UHGV virus genome: UHGV-0096894
Reading direction: 5' to 3' (one strand)
Length of the DNA: 18,917 nucleotides
Source of the DNA: a virus
This document shows, in pieces, positions 780-12,807 of the stretch. The position numbers were made by a program, and so were the translations under genes. Position 1 is the first letter of the stretch; each line of letters begins with the position of its first letter. The notes beneath the pieces were generated by a model, which worked only from the letters and a program-made list of their open reading frames with translations, made no database searches and was not told where the DNA came from.

Positions 780-990
780 TTTCATATTGGCGAGGTAACG
801 GTAGTTAAGTAGAATGCCTGCGGGTGCTTGAGGCTATCTGCCTCGGGCATGAACACCAAAGGCAGATAGAGAAAAGCCCCAGTTAACATTACGCGTCCTG
901 CAAGACGCTTAACATTAATCTGAGGCCATATCTATGCCATACACACGTAGGTTAGCCTCTTACGCGCCGAAAGGCAAGGAGAAGCAGGCT

Positions 991-1146
991 ATGAAGCAGC
1001 AAAAGGTGATGTTAATCGCCCTGATCGTCATCTGTTTAACCGTCATAGTGACGACACTGGTAACGAGGAAAGACCTCTGCGAGGTACGAATCCGAACCGG
1101 CCAGACGGAGGTCGCTGTCTTCACAGCTTACGAACCTGAGGAGTAA
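991..1146 (+). CDS. hokD: Hok/Gef-family type I toxin (51 aa)
   Basis: ATG at 991 preceded by aaggcaaggagaag RBS. Product MKQQKVMLIALIVICLTVIVTTLVTRKDLCEVRIRTGQTEVAVFTAYEPEE has the Hok layout (N-terminal TM helix, conserved Cys, short polar tail) and closely matches my recollection of E. coli HokD/RelF. The track ORF starts at 934, but that in-frame extension has no RBS and is probably leader. Confidence 0.75.
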   Translation: MKQQKVMLIALIVICLTVIVTTLVTRKDLCEVRIRTGQTEVAVFTAYEPEE

Positions 1147-3365: not shown

Positions 3366-4421
3366 GTGCGGGTATTGCTTCGACCTGTTCCTGTACCGGA
3401 ACTTGGGCTGGTGGTCCTTAAGCCTGGCCGTGAATCCATGCAGGTATTTCATAACCCTCGAGTGCTGGTAGAGCCGGAACCGAAAAGCATGCGCGGCCTG
3501 CCGTCCGGGATTGTTCCTGCCGTTCGCCAGCCACTGATGGAAGATAAATCATTACTGCCATTTTTCAGCGACGAACGGGTGATTCGCGCTGCCGGCGGTG
3601 CTGGTTCACTGTCTGACTGGCTCCTGCGTCATGTTAAATCCTGCCAGTGGCCTCATGGTGACTATCATCACAGTGAAATCGTCATACATCGTTACTGTAC
3701 CGGCGCGATGGTGTTGTGCTGGCACTGCGACAACCAGCTGCGTGACCAGACATCAGAATCACTTGAACAACTTGCTCATCAAAACCTGGCAGCATGGATG
3801 ATTGACGTCATCCGTCACGCAATGAATGGCACGCAGGAGCGGGAATTATCGCTGGCTGAATTGTACTGCTGGGCTGCTGTAAATGATGTAGTGGATGCCA
3901 TGACCGAAAATATGGCGCGTCGAATCCTGAAGCTTCCGGGTGAAAAAATCTGCTCAGTATACCGCGAGAGCGACATCATACCGGGAGAGCAGACAGCCAT
4001 CAGCATACTGAAGCAGCGCACAAAAAATCTTGCGCCGCTGCCTCACGCCCACCAGCAAAACCCGCCACAGGAAAAGACGGTGGTCAGCATTGCCGTTGAT
4101 CCGGAGTCACCGGCTCAGTATCTCCAGCGCCAGAAACCACAACGGGAAGATATGCCTGTATACACGCGCTGGGTAAAAACGCAGAAATGCATGACGTGCG
4201 GTAATCAGGCAGATGATCCGCATCACATCATTGGTCATGGGCTGGGAGGGATGGGAACAAAGGCTGATGATTTGTTTGTTATTCCGCTGTGCCGTAAATG
4301 TCATAACGAACTGCACGCCGGGGTAAAAGATTTTGAAGAAAAACACGGCAGCCAGCTGTTGTTGCTGATTCGTTTTTTAATGCACGCGAGAAATTCGGGT
4401 GTCCTGAAGTGGAAAGCATGA
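3366..4421 (+). CDS. DUF968-like lambdoid prophage protein with Cys/His-rich (HNH-like) C-terminal region
   Basis: GTG start at 3366 with GGAGG 5 nt upstream. The C-terminus CMTCGNQADDPHHIIGHGLGGMGTKADDLFVIPLCRKCHNELH has the paired Cys plus His pattern I associate with the DUF968/YdfU family of nin-region proteins. Stop abuts the rusA start. Confidence 0.65.
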   Translation: MRVLLRPVPVPELGLVVLKPGRESMQVFHNPRVLVEPEPKSMRGLPSGIVPAVRQPLMEDKSLLPFFSDERVIRAAGGAGSLSDWLLRHVKSCQWPHGDYHHSEIVIHRYCTGAMVLCWHCDNQLRDQTSESLEQLAHQNLAAWMIDVIRHAMNGTQERELSLAELYCWAAVNDVVDAMTENMARRILKLPGEKICSVYRESDIIPGEQTAISILKQRTKNLAPLPHAHQQNPPQEKTVVSIAVDPESPAQYLQRQKPQREDMPVYTRWVKTQKCMTCGNQADDPHHIIGHGLGGMGTKADDLFVIPLCRKCHNELHAGVKDFEEKHGSQLLLLIRFLMHARNSGVLKWKA

Positions 4422-4799
4422 ATGACTGAACGCATAGAATTTGTTTTGCCTTACCCGCCGACGGTGAATACTTACTGGCGACGTCATGGCAATACGTATT
4501 TCATCTCGGAGGCCGGAAAGCGTTATCGCCGTGATGTGGCGCTAATTGTTCGCCAGCAGCGGCTGAAATTAAACCTGTCCGGAAGGCTGGCGATAAAGAT
4601 TATTGCAGAGCCACCGGATAAGCGCCGTCGTGACCTGGACAATATCCTGAAAGCACCACTGGATGCGCTGACGCATGCCGGACTTCTCATAGACGACGAT
4701 CAGTTTGATGAAATCAATATTGTGCGTGGTCTGCCTGTTTGCGGTGGGCGACTGGGTGTGAATATATTCGTAATAAGAGGATGTAATGATGTTGCGTGA
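4422..4799 (+). CDS. rusA: RusA-family Holliday junction resolvase
   Basis: Product [40 protein letters not shown]...[30 protein letters not shown]...GGRLGVNIF carries the RusA landmarks (PP..N.Y, RRRDLDN, DALT.AG, DD.Q, GGRL). ATG immediately follows the upstream stop. Confidence 0.85.
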
Positions 4800-5160
4800 T
4801 ATTCAGCTGGTTATGGAGCGGTGGGGAGCATGGGCAGCAAATAATCATGAAGATGTAACATGGCCCTCGATAGCTGCTGGTTTTAAAGGATTAATCCCGG
4901 CTAAAGTGAAATCACGTCCTCAGTGTTCTGATGATGACGCCATGATAATTTGTGGCTGTATGGCACGATTAAACAAGAATAATCAGTATTTGCACGATTT
5001 GTTGGTGGATTATTACGTAGGTGGAATGACATTTATGGCTCTTGCACGTAAGCATAGATGTTCTGATGGGCTTATTGGTAAAAGACTTTATAAAGCGGAA
5101 GGTATTATTGAAGGAATGCTTATGGCTCTGAATGTCAGGTTAGATATGGATATGCGGTAG
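4786..5160 (+). CDS. Late-gene antiterminator Q (Q21/QuuD-like family)
   Basis: Product [36 protein letters not shown]...[14 protein letters not shown]... matches my recollection of the small phage-21/DLP12 QuuD-type Q proteins. AGAGGA RBS upstream. The position (after rusA, before late genes) fits. Confidence 0.65.
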
Positions 5161-5250
5161 GGATATAGTGACAAGGGTTATGTTTTTTGTGTTTATAATC
5201 AACGTGTTTATTTTTTGTGATCGTGAATTTTATTGAAGGTAAACAAAATG

Positions 5251-5279
5251 TTGCCAGGTGAATTGAAAATATTGATAAT
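5251..5279 (+). promoter_or_regulatory. Candidate sigma70 promoter (possible pR'-type late promoter)
   Basis: -35 TTGCCA (5251-5256), exactly 17-bp spacer, -10 GATAAT (5274-5279), in the Q-to-next-gene intergenic region where lambdoid pR'/qut elements lie. No hairpin terminator seen between here and the downstream gene. Confidence 0.35.
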
Positions 5280-5310
5280 CAATATTCATCATTAAATGAA
5301 AGGAGTGTTT

Positions 5311-6129
5311 ATGTGGATTGTGTTAGCACTGTCACTGTCAACTCTCAGTTGGCATAAGGTAGTGGCTTTTTCATTGTTGACGGTGTCTGCTGTCCTGGCT
5401 GTACTTAATGATATTATTGATTGGCCGGTGTTGTTTTTTGTTGCTACAATCGTCTTTTTTATTATTTTGAAGTTCAACTGGAAATATAACGCTTGGGCTA
5501 AATCCATATATGAAGCTGGCATAGTTTTATCAGCCATAGCATTATCTTTCCATTTATGGCCAGGGTTTCACAATCCTGTAGTGCTAAAGTCTGTTACTGT
5601 CGGACCTCAAAGCACTCCCTATACAATGTATTTTAATTTTGATAAAGCGCTGGTGCCATTTTTGTTAGTCCTGTGTACAGCTTCTTTGTTTAAAAAAGAA
5701 GTGAAATCAGAAGTGTCTTTGTGGAAATGGGGGGCTCTGTTGCTCTCTGTTCCTCTTATCCTGTTTTTGGCTGTTTTTTTTGGTGGGTTAAAGCCAGAGA
5801 TTCATTTTCCTGAGTGGTTGCCAGAGTTTATATTGGCTAATTTGTTTTTTGTGTCTCTGGCAGAGGAATCATTATTTAGAGGGTATATTCAATCACGGCT
5901 ATCAGAAGTAACGTCTCCATTGATTGCGTTAATTGTGGCGTCTTTGTTGTTTGGTCTTTTTCACTATTCAGGTGGTGCTTTACTTGTATTATTTGCCACG
6001 TTATCTGGTGTTGTGTATGGATTGTCATGGATGTGGAGTGGGCGCTTGTGGGTGGCAACCCTTTTCCATTTTGGTCTGAATCTGTGTCACTTGTTATTCT
6101 TTACCTATCCATTCTTAAAACATAATTGA
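5311..6129 (+). CDS. CPBP-family (Abi/CAAX-protease-like) intramembrane metalloprotease
   Basis: AAGGAG RBS 6 nt before ATG at 5311 (the track starts at 5296). Polytopic hydrophobic protein with all three CPBP motifs: EESLFR (EExxxR), FGLFH (FxxxH) and HFGLN (HxxxN). Confidence 0.8.
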   Translation: MWIVLALSLSTLSWHKVVAFSLLTVSAVLAVLNDIIDWPVLFFVATIVFFIILKFNWKYNAWAKSIYEAGIVLSAIALSFHLWPGFHNPVVLKSVTVGPQSTPYTMYFNFDKALVPFLLVLCTASLFKKEVKSEVSLWKWGALLLSVPLILFLAVFFGGLKPEIHFPEWLPEFILANLFFVSLAEESLFRGYIQSRLSEVTSPLIALIVASLLFGLFHYSGGALLVLFATLSGVVYGLSWMWSGRLWVATLFHFGLNLCHLLFFTYPFLKHN

Positions 6130-6210
6130 TTTTTTTCTATGGTTTTAAATTTATAACACTGAAAAATAGCAGGATGTGACATTTGCATGAGAAATATGCA
6201 CGGCAAAGCA

Positions 6211-6224
6211 TTTACGTACGTAAA
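6211..6224. promoter_or_regulatory. Perfect 14-bp palindrome TTTACGTACGTAAA, candidate operator
   Basis: Exact reverse-complement symmetry at 6211-6224, flanked by AAGCAT/ATGCTT arms, in the untranslated region downstream of the CPBP gene and about 200 bp upstream of the small winged-helix ORF. Confidence 0.3.
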
Positions 6225-6270
6225 AAATCATGTATGCTTTTAAGAGTGGTTATTTCACCGCATAGCCTGA

Positions 6271-6293
6271 ACCCGCCTCTGAGCGGGTTTTTT
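6271..6293 (+). terminator. Rho-independent terminator
   Basis: Stem acccgc(6271-6276)/gcgggt(6283-6288), loop ctctga, then a 6-T run. Confidence 0.6.
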
Positions 6294-6417
6294 GTGCCCG
6301 CAAAGTAGCGCAGTGCGTTAAATGTGCTAGTGGTTATTAATACTGGTCTTTCTGCTTGCTGGCTTTTTCGACAAGAGGTATTGGTATGTCACGTTAACCA
6401 GAAAAGGGAAAAAGACA

Positions 6418-6614
6418 TGCTAAAACAGCAAGATATGACCGAAACCGCCAGAGTGGTGTTTAATGAATTAAGCGTCACCGAACCGGCGACCGTCGGGGAG
6501 ATTGCGCAGAATACTTACCTTTCACGCGAGCGCTGCCAGTTAATACTGACCCAGCTTGTTATGGCGGGCCTGGTAGATTATCAGTTCGGTTGTTACAGAC
6601 GCCTTCCGCAGTGA
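6418..6614 (+). CDS. Small winged-helix DNA-binding protein (65 aa), PapI/FaeA-like
   Basis: ATG at 6418 with AAGGGA upstream. ATVGEIAQNTYLSRERCQLILTQLVMAGLV resembles the recognition-helix region of small PapI/FaeA-type regulators. The track ORF starts earlier at 6324 without an RBS. Confidence 0.5.
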
Positions 6615-6764
6615 AGGCTTTTTTATTTGTGGTAATGGGCGGCTGGTGGGTGTTAGCGGCACCTGCCAGCCATCTGCTCATGCGTTGGGGTCACAAGCAA
6701 ACCTCAGGCCCATCTGCTTTGCGCAAAAGCGGAATGAGCCTATCAGAGAAGTGCTTATTGATCT

Positions 6765-7811
6765 ATGGTTAATACTGTAAAAATATCCAGTTGTGAGTTG
6801 ATCAACGCTGATTGCCTGGAATTTATCCAGACCTTACCGGAAAACTCTGTCGATTTGATAGTCACAGACCCGCCATACTTTAAAGTGAAGCCCGAGGGCT
6901 GGGATAACCAGTGGAAGGGTGACGATGATTACCTGAAGTGGCTGGACCAGTGTCTGGCGCAGTTCTGGCGGGTACTGAAGCCCGCCGGAAGTCTTTACCT
7001 GTTCTGTGGGCATCGTCTGGCATCTGATATCGAGATCATGTTGCGTGAACGTTTCAACGTGCTTAACCATATCATCTGGGCGAAGCCGTCCGGACGCTGG
7101 AACGGGTGCAGGAAGGAAAGCCTGAGGGCATATTTCCCGGCAACAGAGCACATACTGTTTGCTGAACATTACCAGGGGCCATATCGGCCAAAAAATGATG
7201 GCTATGTGGCAAAGGGGCGCGAGCTTAAACAGCATGTCATGGCTCCGCTGATTTCTTACTTTCGTGATGCGCGTGAATCACTGGGGATAACGCCGAAACA
7301 GATAGCGGAAGCCACCGGAAAGAAAAACATGGCTTCGCACTGGTTTGGTGCCAGCCAGTGGCAGTTACCGAACGAAGCTGATTACAGAAAGCTGCAGGCG
7401 TTGTTTGCGCGTGTTGCAGCAGAAAAACATCAACGCGGAGAACTGGAAAAGCCACACCACCATCTGGTCAGCACATACAGCGAACTGAACCGGCAATATG
7501 TCAGCCTGCTGGAAGAGTATAAATCTTTGCGGCGTTATTTTTCCGTATCGGCAGCCGTTCCTTATACGGATGTCTGGACGCACAAACCTGTGCTGTATTA
7601 TCCGGGTAAACATCCGTGTGAGAAGCCAGCAGATATGTTGCGGCAGATAATTACAGCCAGCAGTCGTCCGGGGGAACTGGTTGCAGACTTTTTTATGGGA
7701 TCGGGGGCGACTATAAAGGCTGCGCTCTCTCTGGAACGTAGAGCTATTGGTGTAGAGCTGGAAACGGACAGGTTTAATCAAACGTTTGATGAAATAAGAA
7801 ACAATGGTTAG
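6765..7811 (+). CDS. Orphan DNA amino-methyltransferase (N6-adenine or N4-cytosine, beta-class)
   Basis: Catalytic motif IV DPPY (LIVTDPPYF) near the N-terminus and AdoMet motif I FxGxG (DFFMGSGAT) near the C-terminus, the circularly permuted order of beta-class amino-MTases. No restriction endonuclease gene adjacent. Confidence 0.85.
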   Translation: MVNTVKISSCELINADCLEFIQTLPENSVDLIVTDPPYFKVKPEGWDNQWKGDDDYLKWLDQCLAQFWRVLKPAGSLYLFCGHRLASDIEIMLRERFNVLNHIIWAKPSGRWNGCRKESLRAYFPATEHILFAEHYQGPYRPKNDGYVAKGRELKQHVMAPLISYFRDARESLGITPKQIAEATGKKNMASHWFGASQWQLPNEADYRKLQALFARVAAEKHQRGELEKPHHHLVSTYSELNRQYVSLLEEYKSLRRYFSVSAAVPYTDVWTHKPVLYYPGKHPCEKPADMLRQIITASSRPGELVADFFMGSGATIKAALSLERRAIGVELETDRFNQTFDEIRNNG

Positions 7812-7977: not shown

Positions 7978-8053
<76 letters not shown>

Positions 8054-8056
8054 TAT

Positions 8057-8131
<75 letters not shown>

Positions 8132-9221: not shown

Positions 9222-9268
9222 ACACCACACAAAGGCATCTGCGGATGTCTTTGGTGTGGTGTTTTTTT
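9222..9268 (+). terminator. Strong rho-independent terminator immediately upstream of the lysis cassette
   Basis: Long imperfect hairpin ACACCACACAAAG (9222-9234) / CTTTGGTGTGGTGT (9249-9262) with one bulge and a 14-nt loop holding a catc/gatg mini-stem, followed by a 7-T run. A second T-run at 9285-9290 precedes the holin RBS. Confidence 0.6.
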
Positions 9269-9309
9269 GGGTCCGCTGGTGGCCTTTTTTAATTTACAGG
9301 AGAAAAAGT

Positions 9310-9702
9310 ATGTCTGAACCCTTATCCGGTTCCGGCACCGCTGCTGCGCTCGGTGGGGCGACTGTTTTCGGGCTGTTTACCGGAACGGATTTCGGGATTG
9401 TGTTTGGCGCATTTGCGGGGGCGTTGTTTGTTGCAACGATACCGCAGGCGCTTTCAGCATGGCGGGTGGCGGCACATTTTCTTGTGTCATTTATCGTCGG
9501 CGTGCTGGGTGCGCGTTTGCTTTCAGCCTGGGTGGCATCAAAAACTGGTTATGACGGCACATCTGCAGATGCATTGTGTGCGGTGCTGGTATCGCTGGTG
9601 TCGGTAAAGATTATGTCATTCATCCACCAGCAGGATATCGCATCACTGGTGTCTGGCCTGTTCTCGCGCCTGCGGGGCGGAGGAGGCGGCAATGTTAAGT
9701 AA
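9310..9702 (+). CDS. Putative holin (130 aa, 3-4 predicted transmembrane segments)
   Basis: AGGAG RBS 7 nt before ATG at 9310; the track's 9256 start runs through the terminator T-tract and is unlikely. Gly/Ala-rich hydrophobic segments, short charged C-terminus. Sits first in a block that ends with endolysin and spanins. No similarity to lambda S that I can see. Confidence 0.6.
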   Translation: MSEPLSGSGTAAALGGATVFGLFTGTDFGIVFGAFAGALFVATIPQALSAWRVAAHFLVSFIVGVLGARLLSAWVASKTGYDGTSADALCAVLVSLVSVKIMSFIHQQDIASLVSGLFSRLRGGGGGNVK

Positions 9703-9967
9703 CCTTCCCGGATTGCTGAATGTGGCGTTATGCACGGTTATCGTGCTGACGCTCTTTTTTTATCGTCGTCGTGACTCCAGACACAAACCGCTGATGTCAT
9801 GGCTGGCCTGGCTGCTGATGCTGCTGTATGCCTTTGCCCCCCTCAGCTATCTGTGTGGTCGCCCGTTAGCAACGGGCTGGCTGGAGGTGTTTTTTAATCT
9901 GCTGTTCTGCGTGCTGGTGATACGCGCACGCGGGAACGTCACAAGAATCTTTCCATTGTTGAGGTGA
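9692..9967 (+). CDS. Small membrane protein in lysis cassette (possible second holin or antiholin component)
   Basis: ATG at 9692 overlaps the holin stop by 11 nt, with GGAGGAGG RBS upstream. 91 aa with 2-3 hydrophobic helices. Its TGA stop (9965-9967) sits 3 nt before the endolysin ATG. Confidence 0.5.
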   Translation: MLSNLPGLLNVALCTVIVLTLFFYRRRDSRHKPLMSWLAWLLMLLYAFAPLSYLCGRPLATGWLEVFFNLLFCVLVIRARGNVTRIFPLLR

Positions 9968-9969
9968 AT

Positions 9970-10347
9970 ATGTCGGGTAAATTCAGATTCAGCCGCCGGA
10001 GCGAGAAAAATCTGGAGGGTGTCAAACCACAGCTGGTTGCTGTAGTTCGCCGTGCCCTTGAACTGACGGAGGTTGATTTTGGTATTACGGAAGGTCTGCG
10101 CACGAAAGAGCGCCAGAAACAACTGGTTGCGGAAGGAAAAAGTCAGACTATGAACAGCCGTCACCTGACAGGTGATGCAGTGGATGTTGTGGCCTACGTT
10201 GGCAGCCAGGTGTCATGGGACTGGCCTCTGTACGAGAAAATCGCACAGGCATTTAAGCAGGCTGGTGCAGAGCTGGGAACCGCCATCGAATGGGGCGGGG
10301 ACTGGAAAACACTGAAAGACGGACCACATTTCCAGCTGAAGCGCTGA
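9970..10347 (+). CDS. Endolysin, M15-family peptidase (L-alanyl-D-glutamate peptidase type)
   Basis: Product MSGKFRFSRRSEKNLEGV...SRHLTGDAVDVVAY...WGGDW...GPHFQL has the zinc-ligand pattern (H..G.A.D ... H) of VanY/M15 phage endolysins such as T5 Lys. The track starts at GTG 9964; ATG 9970 is preferred. Confidence 0.8.
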   Translation: MSGKFRFSRRSEKNLEGVKPQLVAVVRRALELTEVDFGITEGLRTKERQKQLVAEGKSQTMNSRHLTGDAVDVVAYVGSQVSWDWPLYEKIAQAFKQAGAELGTAIEWGGDWKTLKDGPHFQLKR

Positions 10348-10362: not shown

Positions 10363-10830
10363 ATGAGCAGAGTTACTGTGATTATCTCCCCTCTGGTTTT
10401 CTGCATCATTGTCTGCCTGTCATTGGCTGTTAATCATTACCGTAATAATGCCATTACCTACAAAGCGCAGCGCGACAAAAATGCCGGAGAACTGAAACTG
10501 GCGAACGTGACAATTACTGACATGCATCAGCTCCAGCGTGAGGCTGATGCACTCGATGCTAAATACACGAAGGAGTTAGCTGATGCGAAAGCTGAAAATG
10601 ATGCTCTTCGGCGCAAGCTTGATAATGGTGGCAGGGTGCTCGTCAAAGGAAAATGCCCTGTGCCATCCTCAGCCGAAACCTCCAGCGCCTCCGGCATGGG
10701 CAATGATGCCACCGTCGAACTCTCTCCAGTTGCTGGACGAAACGTTCTCGGTATCCGGGACGAAATTATCCGCGACCAAACAGCACTGAGAACGCTTCAG
10801 GAATACATCAAGACGCAATGCCTGAATTAA
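10363..10830 (+). CDS. Rz-type i-spanin (inner-membrane spanin subunit)
   Basis: N-terminal TM helix ([18 protein letters not shown]), then a long coiled-coil-like periplasmic region ([44 protein letters not shown]). Directly follows the endolysin gene and contains an embedded +1-frame lipoprotein gene. Confidence 0.8.
10583..10789 (+). CDS. Rz1-type o-spanin lipoprotein, embedded in the +1 frame of Rz
   Basis: AAGGAG RBS 5 nt before ATG at 10583. Product [21 protein letters not shown]... has a lipoprotein signal with lipobox VAGC, followed by a Pro-rich segment ([16 protein letters not shown]). Entirely nested within Rz in another frame. Confidence 0.7.
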
Positions 10831-10871: not shown

Positions 10872-11183
10872 ATGAAAATTTATATTTCCGGGCCAATGAC
10901 GGGATATGAGAACTTTAATCGTGACGCCTTTAATAAAGAGGCAGATCGTTTGTCACGACATGGTCACTCTGTCTTGAATCCAGCCACTTTGCCTAATGGT
11001 CTGACACAACGTGAATACATGGATATTTGCTTTGCAATGCTTCGTTGTGCTGATGCTATTTTGATGCTTCCTGGCTGGAAAGCGTCTGCTGGAGCAACTG
11101 CTGAGTATCATTACGCATACAAGATGGAGATGCCGGTATTCACTACGCTGAATTACCCGCCAGTTTGTTCCTCTGTAGCATAA
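10872..11183 (+). CDS. DUF4406-like protein (nucleoside 2-deoxyribosyltransferase-like fold)
   Basis: MKIYISGPMTGYENFNRDAFNKEADRLSRHGHSVLNPA...CADAILMLPGWKASAGATAE matches the pattern I recall for DUF4406 (KIY.SGPMTG ... NP ... D.I..LPGW..S.GA..E). Confidence 0.65.
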   Translation: MKIYISGPMTGYENFNRDAFNKEADRLSRHGHSVLNPATLPNGLTQREYMDICFAMLRCADAILMLPGWKASAGATAEYHYAYKMEMPVFTTLNYPPVCSSVA

Positions 11184-11528
11184 AATCTCTTTGTTTCTCG
11201 TGTGCGACCGCGGTCGCACGCTAAATTCCGCGCTGCATCGTCGCCGTATTCCCGCATTAACCATGACCGCAGCCCGATGGGGAACTCCTTCTGCGCGAGT
11301 GTGCGGGAATAATCAAAAACGATGCACACCGGGTTTTTACCGCGCTAATGATTCGCGGGTTTATCCCGGTGCGATGGTGGAAGAAACCGGAAGCTGTATT
11401 ACAGAAAGTGCTACTACTGTATCCCGATGCGATGTATGTAATGTGAGTCAGATAATGGCACAGGATGTGGTGATGTGGCAGTCTGGAACACAGGATATAT
11501 TGTCAGAATAAGACCCGTAGGAATAAAA

Positions 11529-11855
11529 ATGAAAAGACGCCTTTTACTACTTTTTCTGTTATCTGTCCTGGCAGTGGGATGCTCGCAGCAAAAAGCTGAT
11601 GAGCCCCGGCAATTAGTGACGGTGTATCCACGATATCCGGAATATGCTGCAGCAAATTATATCAAGGGGCTGGTTGAGGTTAAGTTCGATATTGGTGCTG
11701 ATGGGACTGTGACACGGATCGTTTTTCTCCGCTCAGAGCCTCATAATTTGTTTCGTGATGAAGTGGTGAAGGCCATGGCGAAATGGCGATTTGAAAAGAA
11801 TCGCCCCTGTCAGGGAGTGAAGAGACAATTTATCTTTACGCCGTCACGTCCCTGA
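11529..11855 (+). CDS. Lipoprotein with TonB C-terminal-like domain (108 aa)
   Basis: ATG at 11529 with aggaataaaa upstream (the track starts at 11475). Signal peptide with lipobox LAVGC (MKRRLLLLFLLSVLAVGCSQ). Mature part VYPRYPEYAAANYIKGLVEVKFDIGADGTVTRIVFLRSEPHNLFRDEVVKAMAKWRFE fits the TonB_C pattern (YP..A...G.V.V.F.I..DG.V....V..S.P...F...V..A...WRF). Confidence 0.7.
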   Translation: MKRRLLLLFLLSVLAVGCSQQKADEPRQLVTVYPRYPEYAAANYIKGLVEVKFDIGADGTVTRIVFLRSEPHNLFRDEVVKAMAKWRFEKNRPCQGVKRQFIFTPSRP

Positions 11856-12470: not shown

Positions 12471-12618
12471 TTGATGATGCCTCTGTGTGAAATGACGGTA
12501 AACGACGCACTTGTGCCGGCACATAATAGCAAGCACCATAATAGATCAGATTCGATCCTTGCTGTAAGTGATAATTATTCTCGTTTTCGGGTCCTTTCCG
12601 TCGATCCAACAGGTTACG

Positions 12619-12630
12619 GGGCGGCGACCT
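12619..12630. other. cosN cohesive-end site of lambda-type cos (cosQ upstream, cosB downstream to about 12800)
   Basis: ...CAGGTTACG|GGGCGGCGACCT|CGCGGGTTTTCGC... matches the junction of the lambda right and left ends as I recall them, with the 12-nt cohesive end GGGCGGCGACCT 189 nt before the Nu1 start. cosB contains a 14-bp-arm inverted repeat (12729-12742 / 12768-12781). Confidence 0.7.
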
Positions 12631-12807
12631 CGCGGGTTTTCGCTATTTATGAAAATTTTCCGGTTTAAGGCGTTTCCGTTCTTCTTCGTCATAACTTAAT
12701 GTTTTTATTTAAAATACCCTCTGAAAAGAAAGGAAACGACAGGTGCTGAAAGCGAGCTTTTTGGCCTCTGTCGTTTCCTTTTTCTGTTTTTGTCCGTGGA
12801 ATGAACA

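Follow-up and report, generated by a model that had tools for sequence, protein, structure and literature searches.

How is a gene for a predicted membrane protease expressed when it lies directly behind the antiterminator gene Q of a lambdoid prophage, and does it serve the phage or the lysogen? The question is raised by UHGV virus genome UHGV-0096894, a stretch of viral DNA of 18,917 nucleotides (nt) that was analysed as a whole and is referred to here as the window. Between Q and a homologue of the late promoter pR' of phage 933W, the window carries a gene (5311-6129, plus strand) for a CPBP/Rce1-like glutamic-type intramembrane endopeptidase of 272 amino acids (aa) with ~8 predicted transmembrane helices, the orthologue of Sakai ECs1085 and EDL933 Z1787. 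The gene is genuine and common, has been annotated before and was earlier reported as Z1787; in kind it is an ordinary prophage lysogenic-conversion gene. What is new is its Q-pR' location, the conserved Q-CPBP-pR' unit, the occurrence with a second Q family, a lead towards a Fur box and a family of chromosomal orthologues. We think it probable, with appreciable room for doubt, that positions 5152-6210 form a lysogenic-conversion cassette between Q and pR' of a 933W-type lambdoid Escherichia coli prophage, encoding a CPBP/Rce1 membrane protease.

The position of the gene emerges from comparison with 933W. The window Q (4786-5160, plus strand, 124 aa) matches PF06530 (E=5.9e-51), the Q21/933W family as assigned in bioRxiv 10.1101/651190, and is 78% identical to 933W Q. 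DNA homology of the window Q ends at 5151 against 933W Q and at 5124 against the Q of another prophage locus, L003, and the last codons of the gene belong to the inserted cassette. By blastn, 4790-5151 of the window corresponds to 1743-2104 of the 933W locus (L008) and 6211-6293 to 2167-2248, so that a cassette of 1059 nt (5152-6210, plus strand) replaces the 62 nt that separate the end of the Q homology from pR' in 933W. In the 933W record (NC_000924) pR' (TTTACG, 16 nt, TATCAT), qut and a hairpin are annotated directly 3' of Q and align to window 6211-6293; the promoter homologue in the window (6211-6238, plus strand) has the -35 element TTTACG (6211-6216), a 16-nt spacer, the -10 element TATGCT (6233-6238) and a predicted start at A6245. 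Because this homologue lies 3' of the CPBP gene, the cassette must have been inserted between Q and pR', and since it follows the stop codon at 6129 the sequence places the CPBP gene outside the late operon. Q modifies only polymerase starting at pR', which lies downstream, and hence its antitermination cannot act on the CPBP gene. The original prediction had placed a moron in the classic slot directly after Q; the gene is indeed a dispensable insert that close phages lack, whereas the late-operon slot has to be given up, as the gene lies upstream of pR'.

Several features identify the block at 6211-6293 as pR' backbone. A perfect 14-bp palindrome, TTTACGTACGTAAA (6211-6224), covers the -35 element and spacer and is a candidate for the element bound by Q; all prophages with the 933W Q type have kept it, and it follows every CPBP gene paired with a 933W-type Q, standing 80-100 nt 3' of the stop in every CPBP copy of 60-100% identity. 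Its 933W form is TTTACGATCGTAAA (L008 2167-2180), and the palindrome also occurs in loci L022, L024 and L025. The binding element of Q21 has been described as a direct repeat (bioRxiv 10.1101/651190), unlike this palindrome. The segment 6241-6293 (plus strand) consists of an initially transcribed block, TAAGAGTGGTTA (6241-6252), and then a GC hairpin with a T-run (6270-6293); it belongs to the backbone rather than to the cassette, and its columns are invariant in an alignment of the window, 933W, phiP27, Stx2_14040, L003 and O157.

The fold of 6244-6300 reaches -20.6 kcal/mol (z = -3.29), and the 933W homologue of the hairpin is annotated as a 'possible rho-independent terminator'. The hairpin was established by sequence reading, folding and homology; our terminator scan missed it, probably because extension of the stem through A/T pairs uses up the T-run. 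A pR' start beside Q was mapped by Sy et al. (PMC7547250), along with a transcript, StxS_L, of 258 nt that runs to tR'. Going back by this length from the T-run of tR' in Sakai Sp5 leads to a position 7 nt after TATCAT, the homologous -10, which fits the annotated pR'. The same transcripts read through the Sp5 hairpin homologous to 6270-6293, and this weighs against the hairpin as the end of the CPBP message, whose 3' end is therefore uncertain. The CPBP gene shows no terminator of its own, with no stable structure in 6130-6245 (z = +0.44) and the pR' block at 6270-6293 as the first hairpin. A terminator-like site inside the CPBP reading frame (5820-5837) is weak, with 5 pairs and an 8-nt loop, and was held to be non-functional.

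Phages of the 933W and phiP27 types repeatedly carry cargo in the gap between Q and pR', a place separate from the stx site, which in phiP27 and 933W lies downstream of pR', after methylase and tRNA genes. In the Stx2a phage Stx2_14040 the slot is empty, the distance from Q to the pR' -10 being within ~35 nt; in phiP27 it holds L22, a GIY-YIG nuclease gene, and in L003 and a further locus, L004, an ORF6N gene with a strong promoter of its own and a leader hairpin. At 3892-4010 of both L003 and L004, a near-consensus promoter with TTGACC and TATATT 17 nt apart stands directly after Q, and a hairpin with a T-run follows ~100 nt on, before the ORF6N reading frame; this hairpin could be a leader or attenuator, or a small RNA.

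With Q excluded as its regulator, the CPBP gene has a predicted sigma-70 promoter at 5251-5279 (plus strand), 32 nt 5' of the gene, in which the -35 element TTGCCA (5251-5256) and the -10 element GATAAT (5274-5279) are separated by a 17-nt spacer and transcription is predicted to start near 5286. The site matches the consensus at 10 of 12 positions and is the top-scoring one in 4700-7000. On its own this match is within chance, as 7 promoter-like sites were found compared with 5.4 +/- 2.5 in shuffles, and this counts against the promoter. It is lifted above chance because the hexamers and their spacing survive while the flanking DNA has diverged: both persist in the variants from O157, of the E. 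albertii type (85%) and from L060 (86%), with TTGCCA, TTGCCT or TTGTCA as the -35 hexamer and GATAAT kept, while the 70 nt 5' of the promoter are scrambled by substitutions and indels and the CPBP coding regions stand at a synonymous divergence (dS) of 0.55. Variants of 60-62% identity have other promoter-like sequences at the same place. These comparisons support a separate predicted promoter for the CPBP gene, other than pR', much as originally proposed.

The intergenic region contains little else that could act as a control element. The terminator scan found none between the Q stop (5160) and the CPBP ATG, and the fold of 5150-5320 is no better than that of shuffled sequence (z = +0.24), so the earlier claim that no terminator precedes the gene holds. 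Two further promoter candidates were rejected, TAGATA-17-TATAGT (5141-5169) as a 2-nt indel in relatives alters its spacing and TATAAT at 5194-5199 for want of a -35 element. The first ~50 nt 3' of the Q stop (5161-5212; GGATATAGTGAC...TGTGTTTATAAT...TGTTTA) are better conserved among the variants than the next ~35 nt, and the perfect TATAAT falls inside this stretch.

Published data bear on expression, as the window gene can be equated with Z1787 because both Z1787 primers used for quantitative reverse transcription PCR in PMC2654852 match the window without mismatch (5328-5348 and 5803-5822). In that study Jandu et al. (2009) detected the Z1787 transcript in uninduced EDL933 and CL56 by reverse transcription PCR and microarray, at a level that rose 2.7-fold with HEp-2 cells (PMC2654852). 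RNA-seq of uninduced O26 and O145 E. coli that make Shiga toxin (STEC) likewise recorded a 'CAAX protease' transcript, whose level in adhered cells was 3- to 13-fold below that of planktonic ones (PMC7649339). These reports support transcription of the gene in uninduced cultures, independently of Q, in line with the lysogen expression that had been predicted. The published transcripts could in principle derive instead from leaky pR or Q read-through, which tells against an own promoter as their source. Our literature search found nothing for ECs1085, or for CPBP together with an antiterminator, and Z1787 mentioned in one paper only; array signals for EDL933 Z1346-Z1348 (PMC2907692) were not used as evidence, their link to the CPBP gene by gene order being unverified.

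The distribution of the gene bears on whom it benefits. Of 5426 complete E. coli genomes, 572 have the Q-CPBP pair at a query coverage of 80% or more, with carriers among O157:H7, O145:H28, O111:H8, O103:H2 and O55:H7. The Sakai copy, ECs1085, lies in prophage Sp4 in the same surrounding gene order and is intact even though Sp4 is riddled with insertion sequences (IS). Between the O157 copy and the window there are 12 nonsynonymous and 18 synonymous changes, and dN/dS among CPBP copies ranges from 0.06 to 0.21; the gene is under purifying selection and is kept intact even in decayed prophages. Directly upstream of the CPBP variants with 85%, 62% and 60% protein identity there is always a Q of the 933W type, 79-99% identical. 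Megablast and tblastn searches of 50,697 deposited phage records did not find the gene. Because viable related Stx phages and all deposited phage genomes lack it, the gene appears dispensable for phage growth and kept in lysogens, to the benefit of the lysogen rather than the phage. On an IMG/VR contig (L068, 3184-4822) a CPBP gene of 48% identity follows genes for a phage tail protein and LPMO_10 and has no Q near it; this is a different prophage position for the family.

These data also bear on the alternative that the gene has no working promoter of its own and is no more than the final gene of the early pR operon, acting in lytic growth, for instance by excluding superinfecting phage or by altering the membrane before lysis. 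The lack of a terminator after Q is what such an arrangement would lead one to expect, the Q-CPBP linkage persists through 40% protein divergence, and the promoter match taken alone is within chance. However, the hexamers and spacing have been kept while their flanks diverged, the transcript is both detected and regulated in uninduced cultures (PMC2654852, PMC7649339), and a gene of lytic growth would not be expected to stay intact in the IS-riddled Sp4 while being absent from deposited viable phages, close Stx relatives included. We consider this alternative distinctly unlikely.

We examined the protein for what it might do in the lysogen. The open reading frame (ORF) listing gives 5296-6129 (plus strand), 277 aa with a hydrophobic translation, but ATG 5296 is not conserved, being ATA in the alignment of close relatives, and RefSeq starts the gene at the second ATG and annotates 819 nt; the coding sequence was therefore taken as 5311-6129 (272 aa), and residues are numbered accordingly. 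A Shine-Dalgarno sequence, AAGGAG (5300-5305, plus strand), lies 5 nt 5' of ATG 5311 and is kept in alignments of relatives. The family assignment made in the original prediction was borne out by a profile search, which matched PF02517 (Rce1-like/CPBP) at E=4.8e-20 and 72.1 bits (cut-off 22.4) over residues 174-263 of the 277-aa reading; phrog_13291 matches over the full length. All three motifs are present: EExxxR as E185-E186...R190 (5863-5880), FxxxH as F214...H218 (histidine codon 5962-5964) and HxxxN as H253...N257 (6067-6081), and E185, E186, R190, H218, H253 and N257 do not vary across 33 homologues with identities down to 48%. The N-terminal half of the subfamily has a conserved block of its own, HLxPGFHNP...YNFDKALxPF, with H81, G85, N88, S101, N109, D111, K112, P116 and F117 invariant.

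An AlphaFold2 model built from the 33-homologue alignment has a pLDDT of 95.5 and consists of long helices throughout, making the modelled product a polytopic inner-membrane protein of ~8 helices without a secreted domain. Foldseek comparison with the PDB gave Rce1 (4CAD) as the top and SpdC (6U0O) as the second match, these being the sole meaningful ones, with probabilities of 0.98-0.99 and weak E-values of 8e-3 to 3e-2; a profile search of PDB sequences with the homologue alignment returned noise only (E ~0.8). NCBIfam matches to myxosortase, MroQ and ABC-CPBP equivalogs were weak and below cut-off, those to MroQ and the myxosortases far below, and membership of these groups was rejected. 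In RefSeq some copies bear the name 'lysostaphin resistance A-like'. The protein is hence a member of the CPBP/Rce1 family with its catalytic residues intact, and proteolysis itself is a prediction from them. Family membership does not guarantee it: the CPBP protein SpdC acts as a scaffold, and LnsB has a part in the N-acylation of lipoproteins (PMC7387801), neither being a protease, and both cases count against our assignment of an enzymatic role.

Full-length proteins with ~50% identity are also found outside prophages, in Enterobacter, Citrobacter, Salmonella, Dickeya, Serratia, Pantoea, Providencia, Hafnia, Photorhabdus and P. aeruginosa. At the six chromosomal loci examined the CPBP gene is monocistronic and stands alone in neighbourhoods that differ, and across the six there is no shared partner gene and no linked bacteriocin gene. 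The orthologue directly follows modE/modF genes in Hafnia and Providencia; its neighbours in Enterobacter are a ferric ABC transporter and a TonB-dependent receptor, and in Salmonella FTR1/P19-type iron-uptake genes. In P. aeruginosa a chromosomal homologue (L019, 5001-5819), 62% identical across 74% of the query, has a phosphoglycerate mutase gene on one side and, on the other, genes for an M23 peptidase and an S41 (CtpA-like) protease, a neighbourhood that hints at a cell-envelope context for the family. In E. coli the DNA of the Enterobacter orthologue finds only prophage copies. To our knowledge the E. coli core genome has no CPBP orthologue, and because it appears to be without one, the prophage supplies the gene to E. 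coli.

On the reading that we favour, that of a lysogenic-conversion cassette, the CPBP gene would be transcribed in the lysogen from its own promoter at 5251-5279, into a message that would end at the pR'-proximal hairpin (6270-6293) or, on read-through, at 6601-6628. After induction, transcription of the N-antiterminated pR operon would also reach it, as the operon's last gene, and Q would have no role in its expression. The enzyme would cut a bacterial envelope protein or peptide in a segment embedded in the membrane or close to it, and the prophage would thereby give E. coli an activity for which many other Enterobacterales have a stand-alone gene on the chromosome, a benefit to the lysogen and not to phage growth.

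A benefit to the lysogen could also take the form of defence, with the gene acting from the prophage against other phages by superinfection exclusion or abortive infection, which was one function initially suggested for it. The gene is prophage-borne, apparently expressed in the lysogen and located in the membrane, and the family name 'Abi' carries a historical link to abortive infection. Nevertheless, a scan of the protein against PADLOC-DB v2 gave no family at E<=0.1, the orthologues stand alone in ordinary chromosomal surroundings (flanked by modF in Hafnia and Providencia) rather than in defence islands, and no phage phenotype has been reported for the gene. An anti-phage function is thus decidedly improbable.

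A different lead comes from the promoter itself. A perfect 19-nt palindrome, AATATTGATAATCAATATT (5268-5286), lies over the -10 element and the predicted start and matches GATAATGATAATCATTATC at 15 of 19 positions, making it a candidate Fur box. Shuffling the 150-nt intergenic region yields a Fur score of at least 15 in 0.3% of cases, and shuffling the whole window does so in 7%. The palindrome core, ATTGATAATCAAT, is invariant in the variant alignment. A 56%-identical CPBP gene (P0006; loci L065 and L071-L073) occurs in prophages with a lambda-type Q (PF03589), in the order Q, pR', tR' hairpin, a spacer of ~120 nt, GTTAATGATAAACATTATC, CPBP and holin. Here GTTAATGATAAACATTATC is a Fur box of 17/19 (L065 3946-3964), 37 nt 5' of the CPBP ATG; a score of 17 was never reached in 20,000 shuffles, and no other site in 567 kb of pooled loci scores that high. 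The CPBP gene lies upstream of pR' with the 933W-type Q and downstream of tR' with the lambda-type Q.

Several observations weigh against control by Fur. The score is 13-14/19 in variants, with 13/19 in L060, whose palindrome is without its right arm; the variants of 60% identity reach only 12/19, and no Fur box was found 5' of the six chromosomal orthologues, in a scan that did detect the 16/19 box expected ahead of the Enterobacter ferric ABC transporter. Consensus counting also gives false positives, since the second-best Fur-like site in the window, a cluster scoring 14-15/19 at 12564-12588, lies in the lambda-like cosQ region at the right end, just before cosN (GGGCGGCGACCT, 12620-12631), and is probably unrelated to Fur. 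In O145 strain 4865/96, moreover, chuA was up 10-fold and the CAAX protease down 3- to 6-fold (PMC7649339), in conflict with the 2009 array, in which Z1787 grouped with exbB, chuU and entE (PMC2654852). On these sequence matches, an iron response of the 5251-5279 promoter through Fur is a genuine but doubtful possibility. The wider proposal, that CPBP was recruited beside the Q/pR' junction in two lambdoid lineages with unrelated Q families and put under Fur control in both, as an envelope function that E. coli lacks and that iron limitation induces, we regard as conceivable but unlikely. If it were true, the function might be protection from TonB-dependent bacteriocins or phages, or the processing of an envelope protein relevant to colonisation.

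The iron lead has a more specific version, in which the gene confers immunity or tolerance to a membrane-acting bacteriocin or microcin that is taken up more when iron is limiting, and is switched on together with the Fur regulon when siderophore receptors are derepressed. Kjos et al. reportedly showed in 2010 that CPBP 'Abi' proteins provide bacteriocin immunity in Gram-positives, namely in lactic acid bacteria. Such a role would agree with the Fur-like boxes in two independent prophage lineages and with the two of six chromosomal orthologues that stand beside iron-uptake genes. It would agree too with the array data of PMC2654852, in which Z1787 clusters with exbB, chuU and entE, and chuA, chuS, chuT and entF form the neighbouring cluster. 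The boxes are absent, however, from the 60% variants and from the chromosomal orthologues, one RNA-seq study runs opposite to chuA (PMC7649339), and no bacteriocin gene is linked to CPBP in any context examined, neither in the prophages nor beside the six chromosomal orthologues, which leaves the bacteriocin self-immunity of the original prediction unsupported. We rate this version as very unlikely.

The only published phenotype suggests yet another role, that of a virulence factor directly blocking signalling from interferon gamma (IFN-gamma) to STAT-1 in the host, as proposed for Z1787. Deletion of Z1787 in EDL933 abolished the suppression of IFN-gamma-induced STAT-1 phosphorylation, although complementation and transfer to HB101 had only partial effects (PMC2654852). 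The model of an integral-membrane protein of ~8 helices without a secreted domain makes release to host cells implausible, orthologues occur in plant-associated and environmental bacteria, and the deletion, lying between Q and pR', may have acted indirectly or through polarity, so that a direct action on the host is highly improbable.

Finally, that 5251-5279 is itself the Q-dependent pR', with CPBP as the first late gene or between pR' and tR', can hardly be right, for although the site is the best sigma-70 match directly after Q, pR' directly follows Q in lambda-type cassettes and a hairpin with a T-run comes after the CPBP gene, the site shares nothing with the pR' of 933W, L003 or phiP27, the clear 933W pR'/qut homologue lies 3' of the gene at 6211-6293 and fits the mapped StxS transcript, the window Q is 78% identical to that of 933W, and TTTACGTACGTAAA follows the CPBP gene in every 933W-Q lineage.

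The cassette is set among further genes of the prophage. Downstream, the first ORF after pR' (6324-6614, plus strand) encodes a small TrmB/MarR-like winged-helix protein (phrog_331, with a weak PF01978 match). Conservation of the ORF extends to phiP27 and many Stx2 phages, and O157 prophages of the Sp4 type carry it with a frameshift; it is followed by its own terminator (6601-6628), a DNA methylase gene (6765-7811) and two tRNAs (7978-8128). An Rfam scan of the whole window found nothing in 5100-6700 and returned only sok and two tRNAs, the sok RNA (RF01794, 112 bits), antitoxin of a hok/sok module, lying at 822-996 (plus strand), upstream of the DUF968-RusA-Q block. The lysis cassette comprises holins (9256-9967), an M15 endolysin (9964-10347), Rz (10363-10830) and DUF4406 (10872-11183). 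After it, and before cos and Nu1, a 126-aa ORF (11475-11855, plus strand) encodes a TonB C-terminal domain (PF03544, E=1.1e-12) and may be another conversion gene tied to TonB-dependent uptake.

About 1 in 10 complete E. coli genomes thus carries a gene whose only published phenotype is an unexplained effect on STAT-1. The gene is directly testable, since it lies outside the late operon, has its own conserved predicted promoter, possibly an iron-responsive one, and is the orthologue of a widespread chromosomal gene of Enterobacterales. Z1787/ECs1085, annotated as a 'phage CAAX amino terminal protease family protein', is the same gene as that of the window; the 2009 paper treated its product as a possibly released protease and gave no membrane topology, Q-pR' position, promoter or Fur-like box.

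Among characterised proteins, Rce1 of M. maripaludis (4CAD) belongs to the same Pfam family, shares the three motifs and is the top structural match, yet identity is only 17-18%, the TM-score is ~0.36-0.38 and the N-terminal block is specific to the CPBP subfamily described here. E. coli, moreover, is not known to have prenylated CAAX substrates. SpdC/LyrA of S. aureus and the other bacterial CPBP proteins MroQ and LnsB have a polytopic CPBP fold like that of the window protein, which differs from SpdC, a scaffold for SagB, and from LnsB, with its part in lipoprotein N-acylation, in that it keeps every catalytic residue. The 'Abi' immunity proteins of lactic acid bacteria have a CPBP domain with the same motifs, but their genes sit in bacteriocin operons, whereas the window gene has no linked bacteriocin gene in the contexts examined. 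As a moron, CPBP resembles bor, lom and stx in being an extra gene that related phages do without, with its own promoter-like element and expression from the prophage, and differs from them in that it lies outside the late operon, upstream of pR', and brings no terminator of its own. The closest parallels in position are L22 of phiP27 and the ORF6N genes of L003 and L004, which encode proteins unrelated to the CPBP protein and are, like CPBP, inserted between a PF06530 Q and the conserved pR' block.

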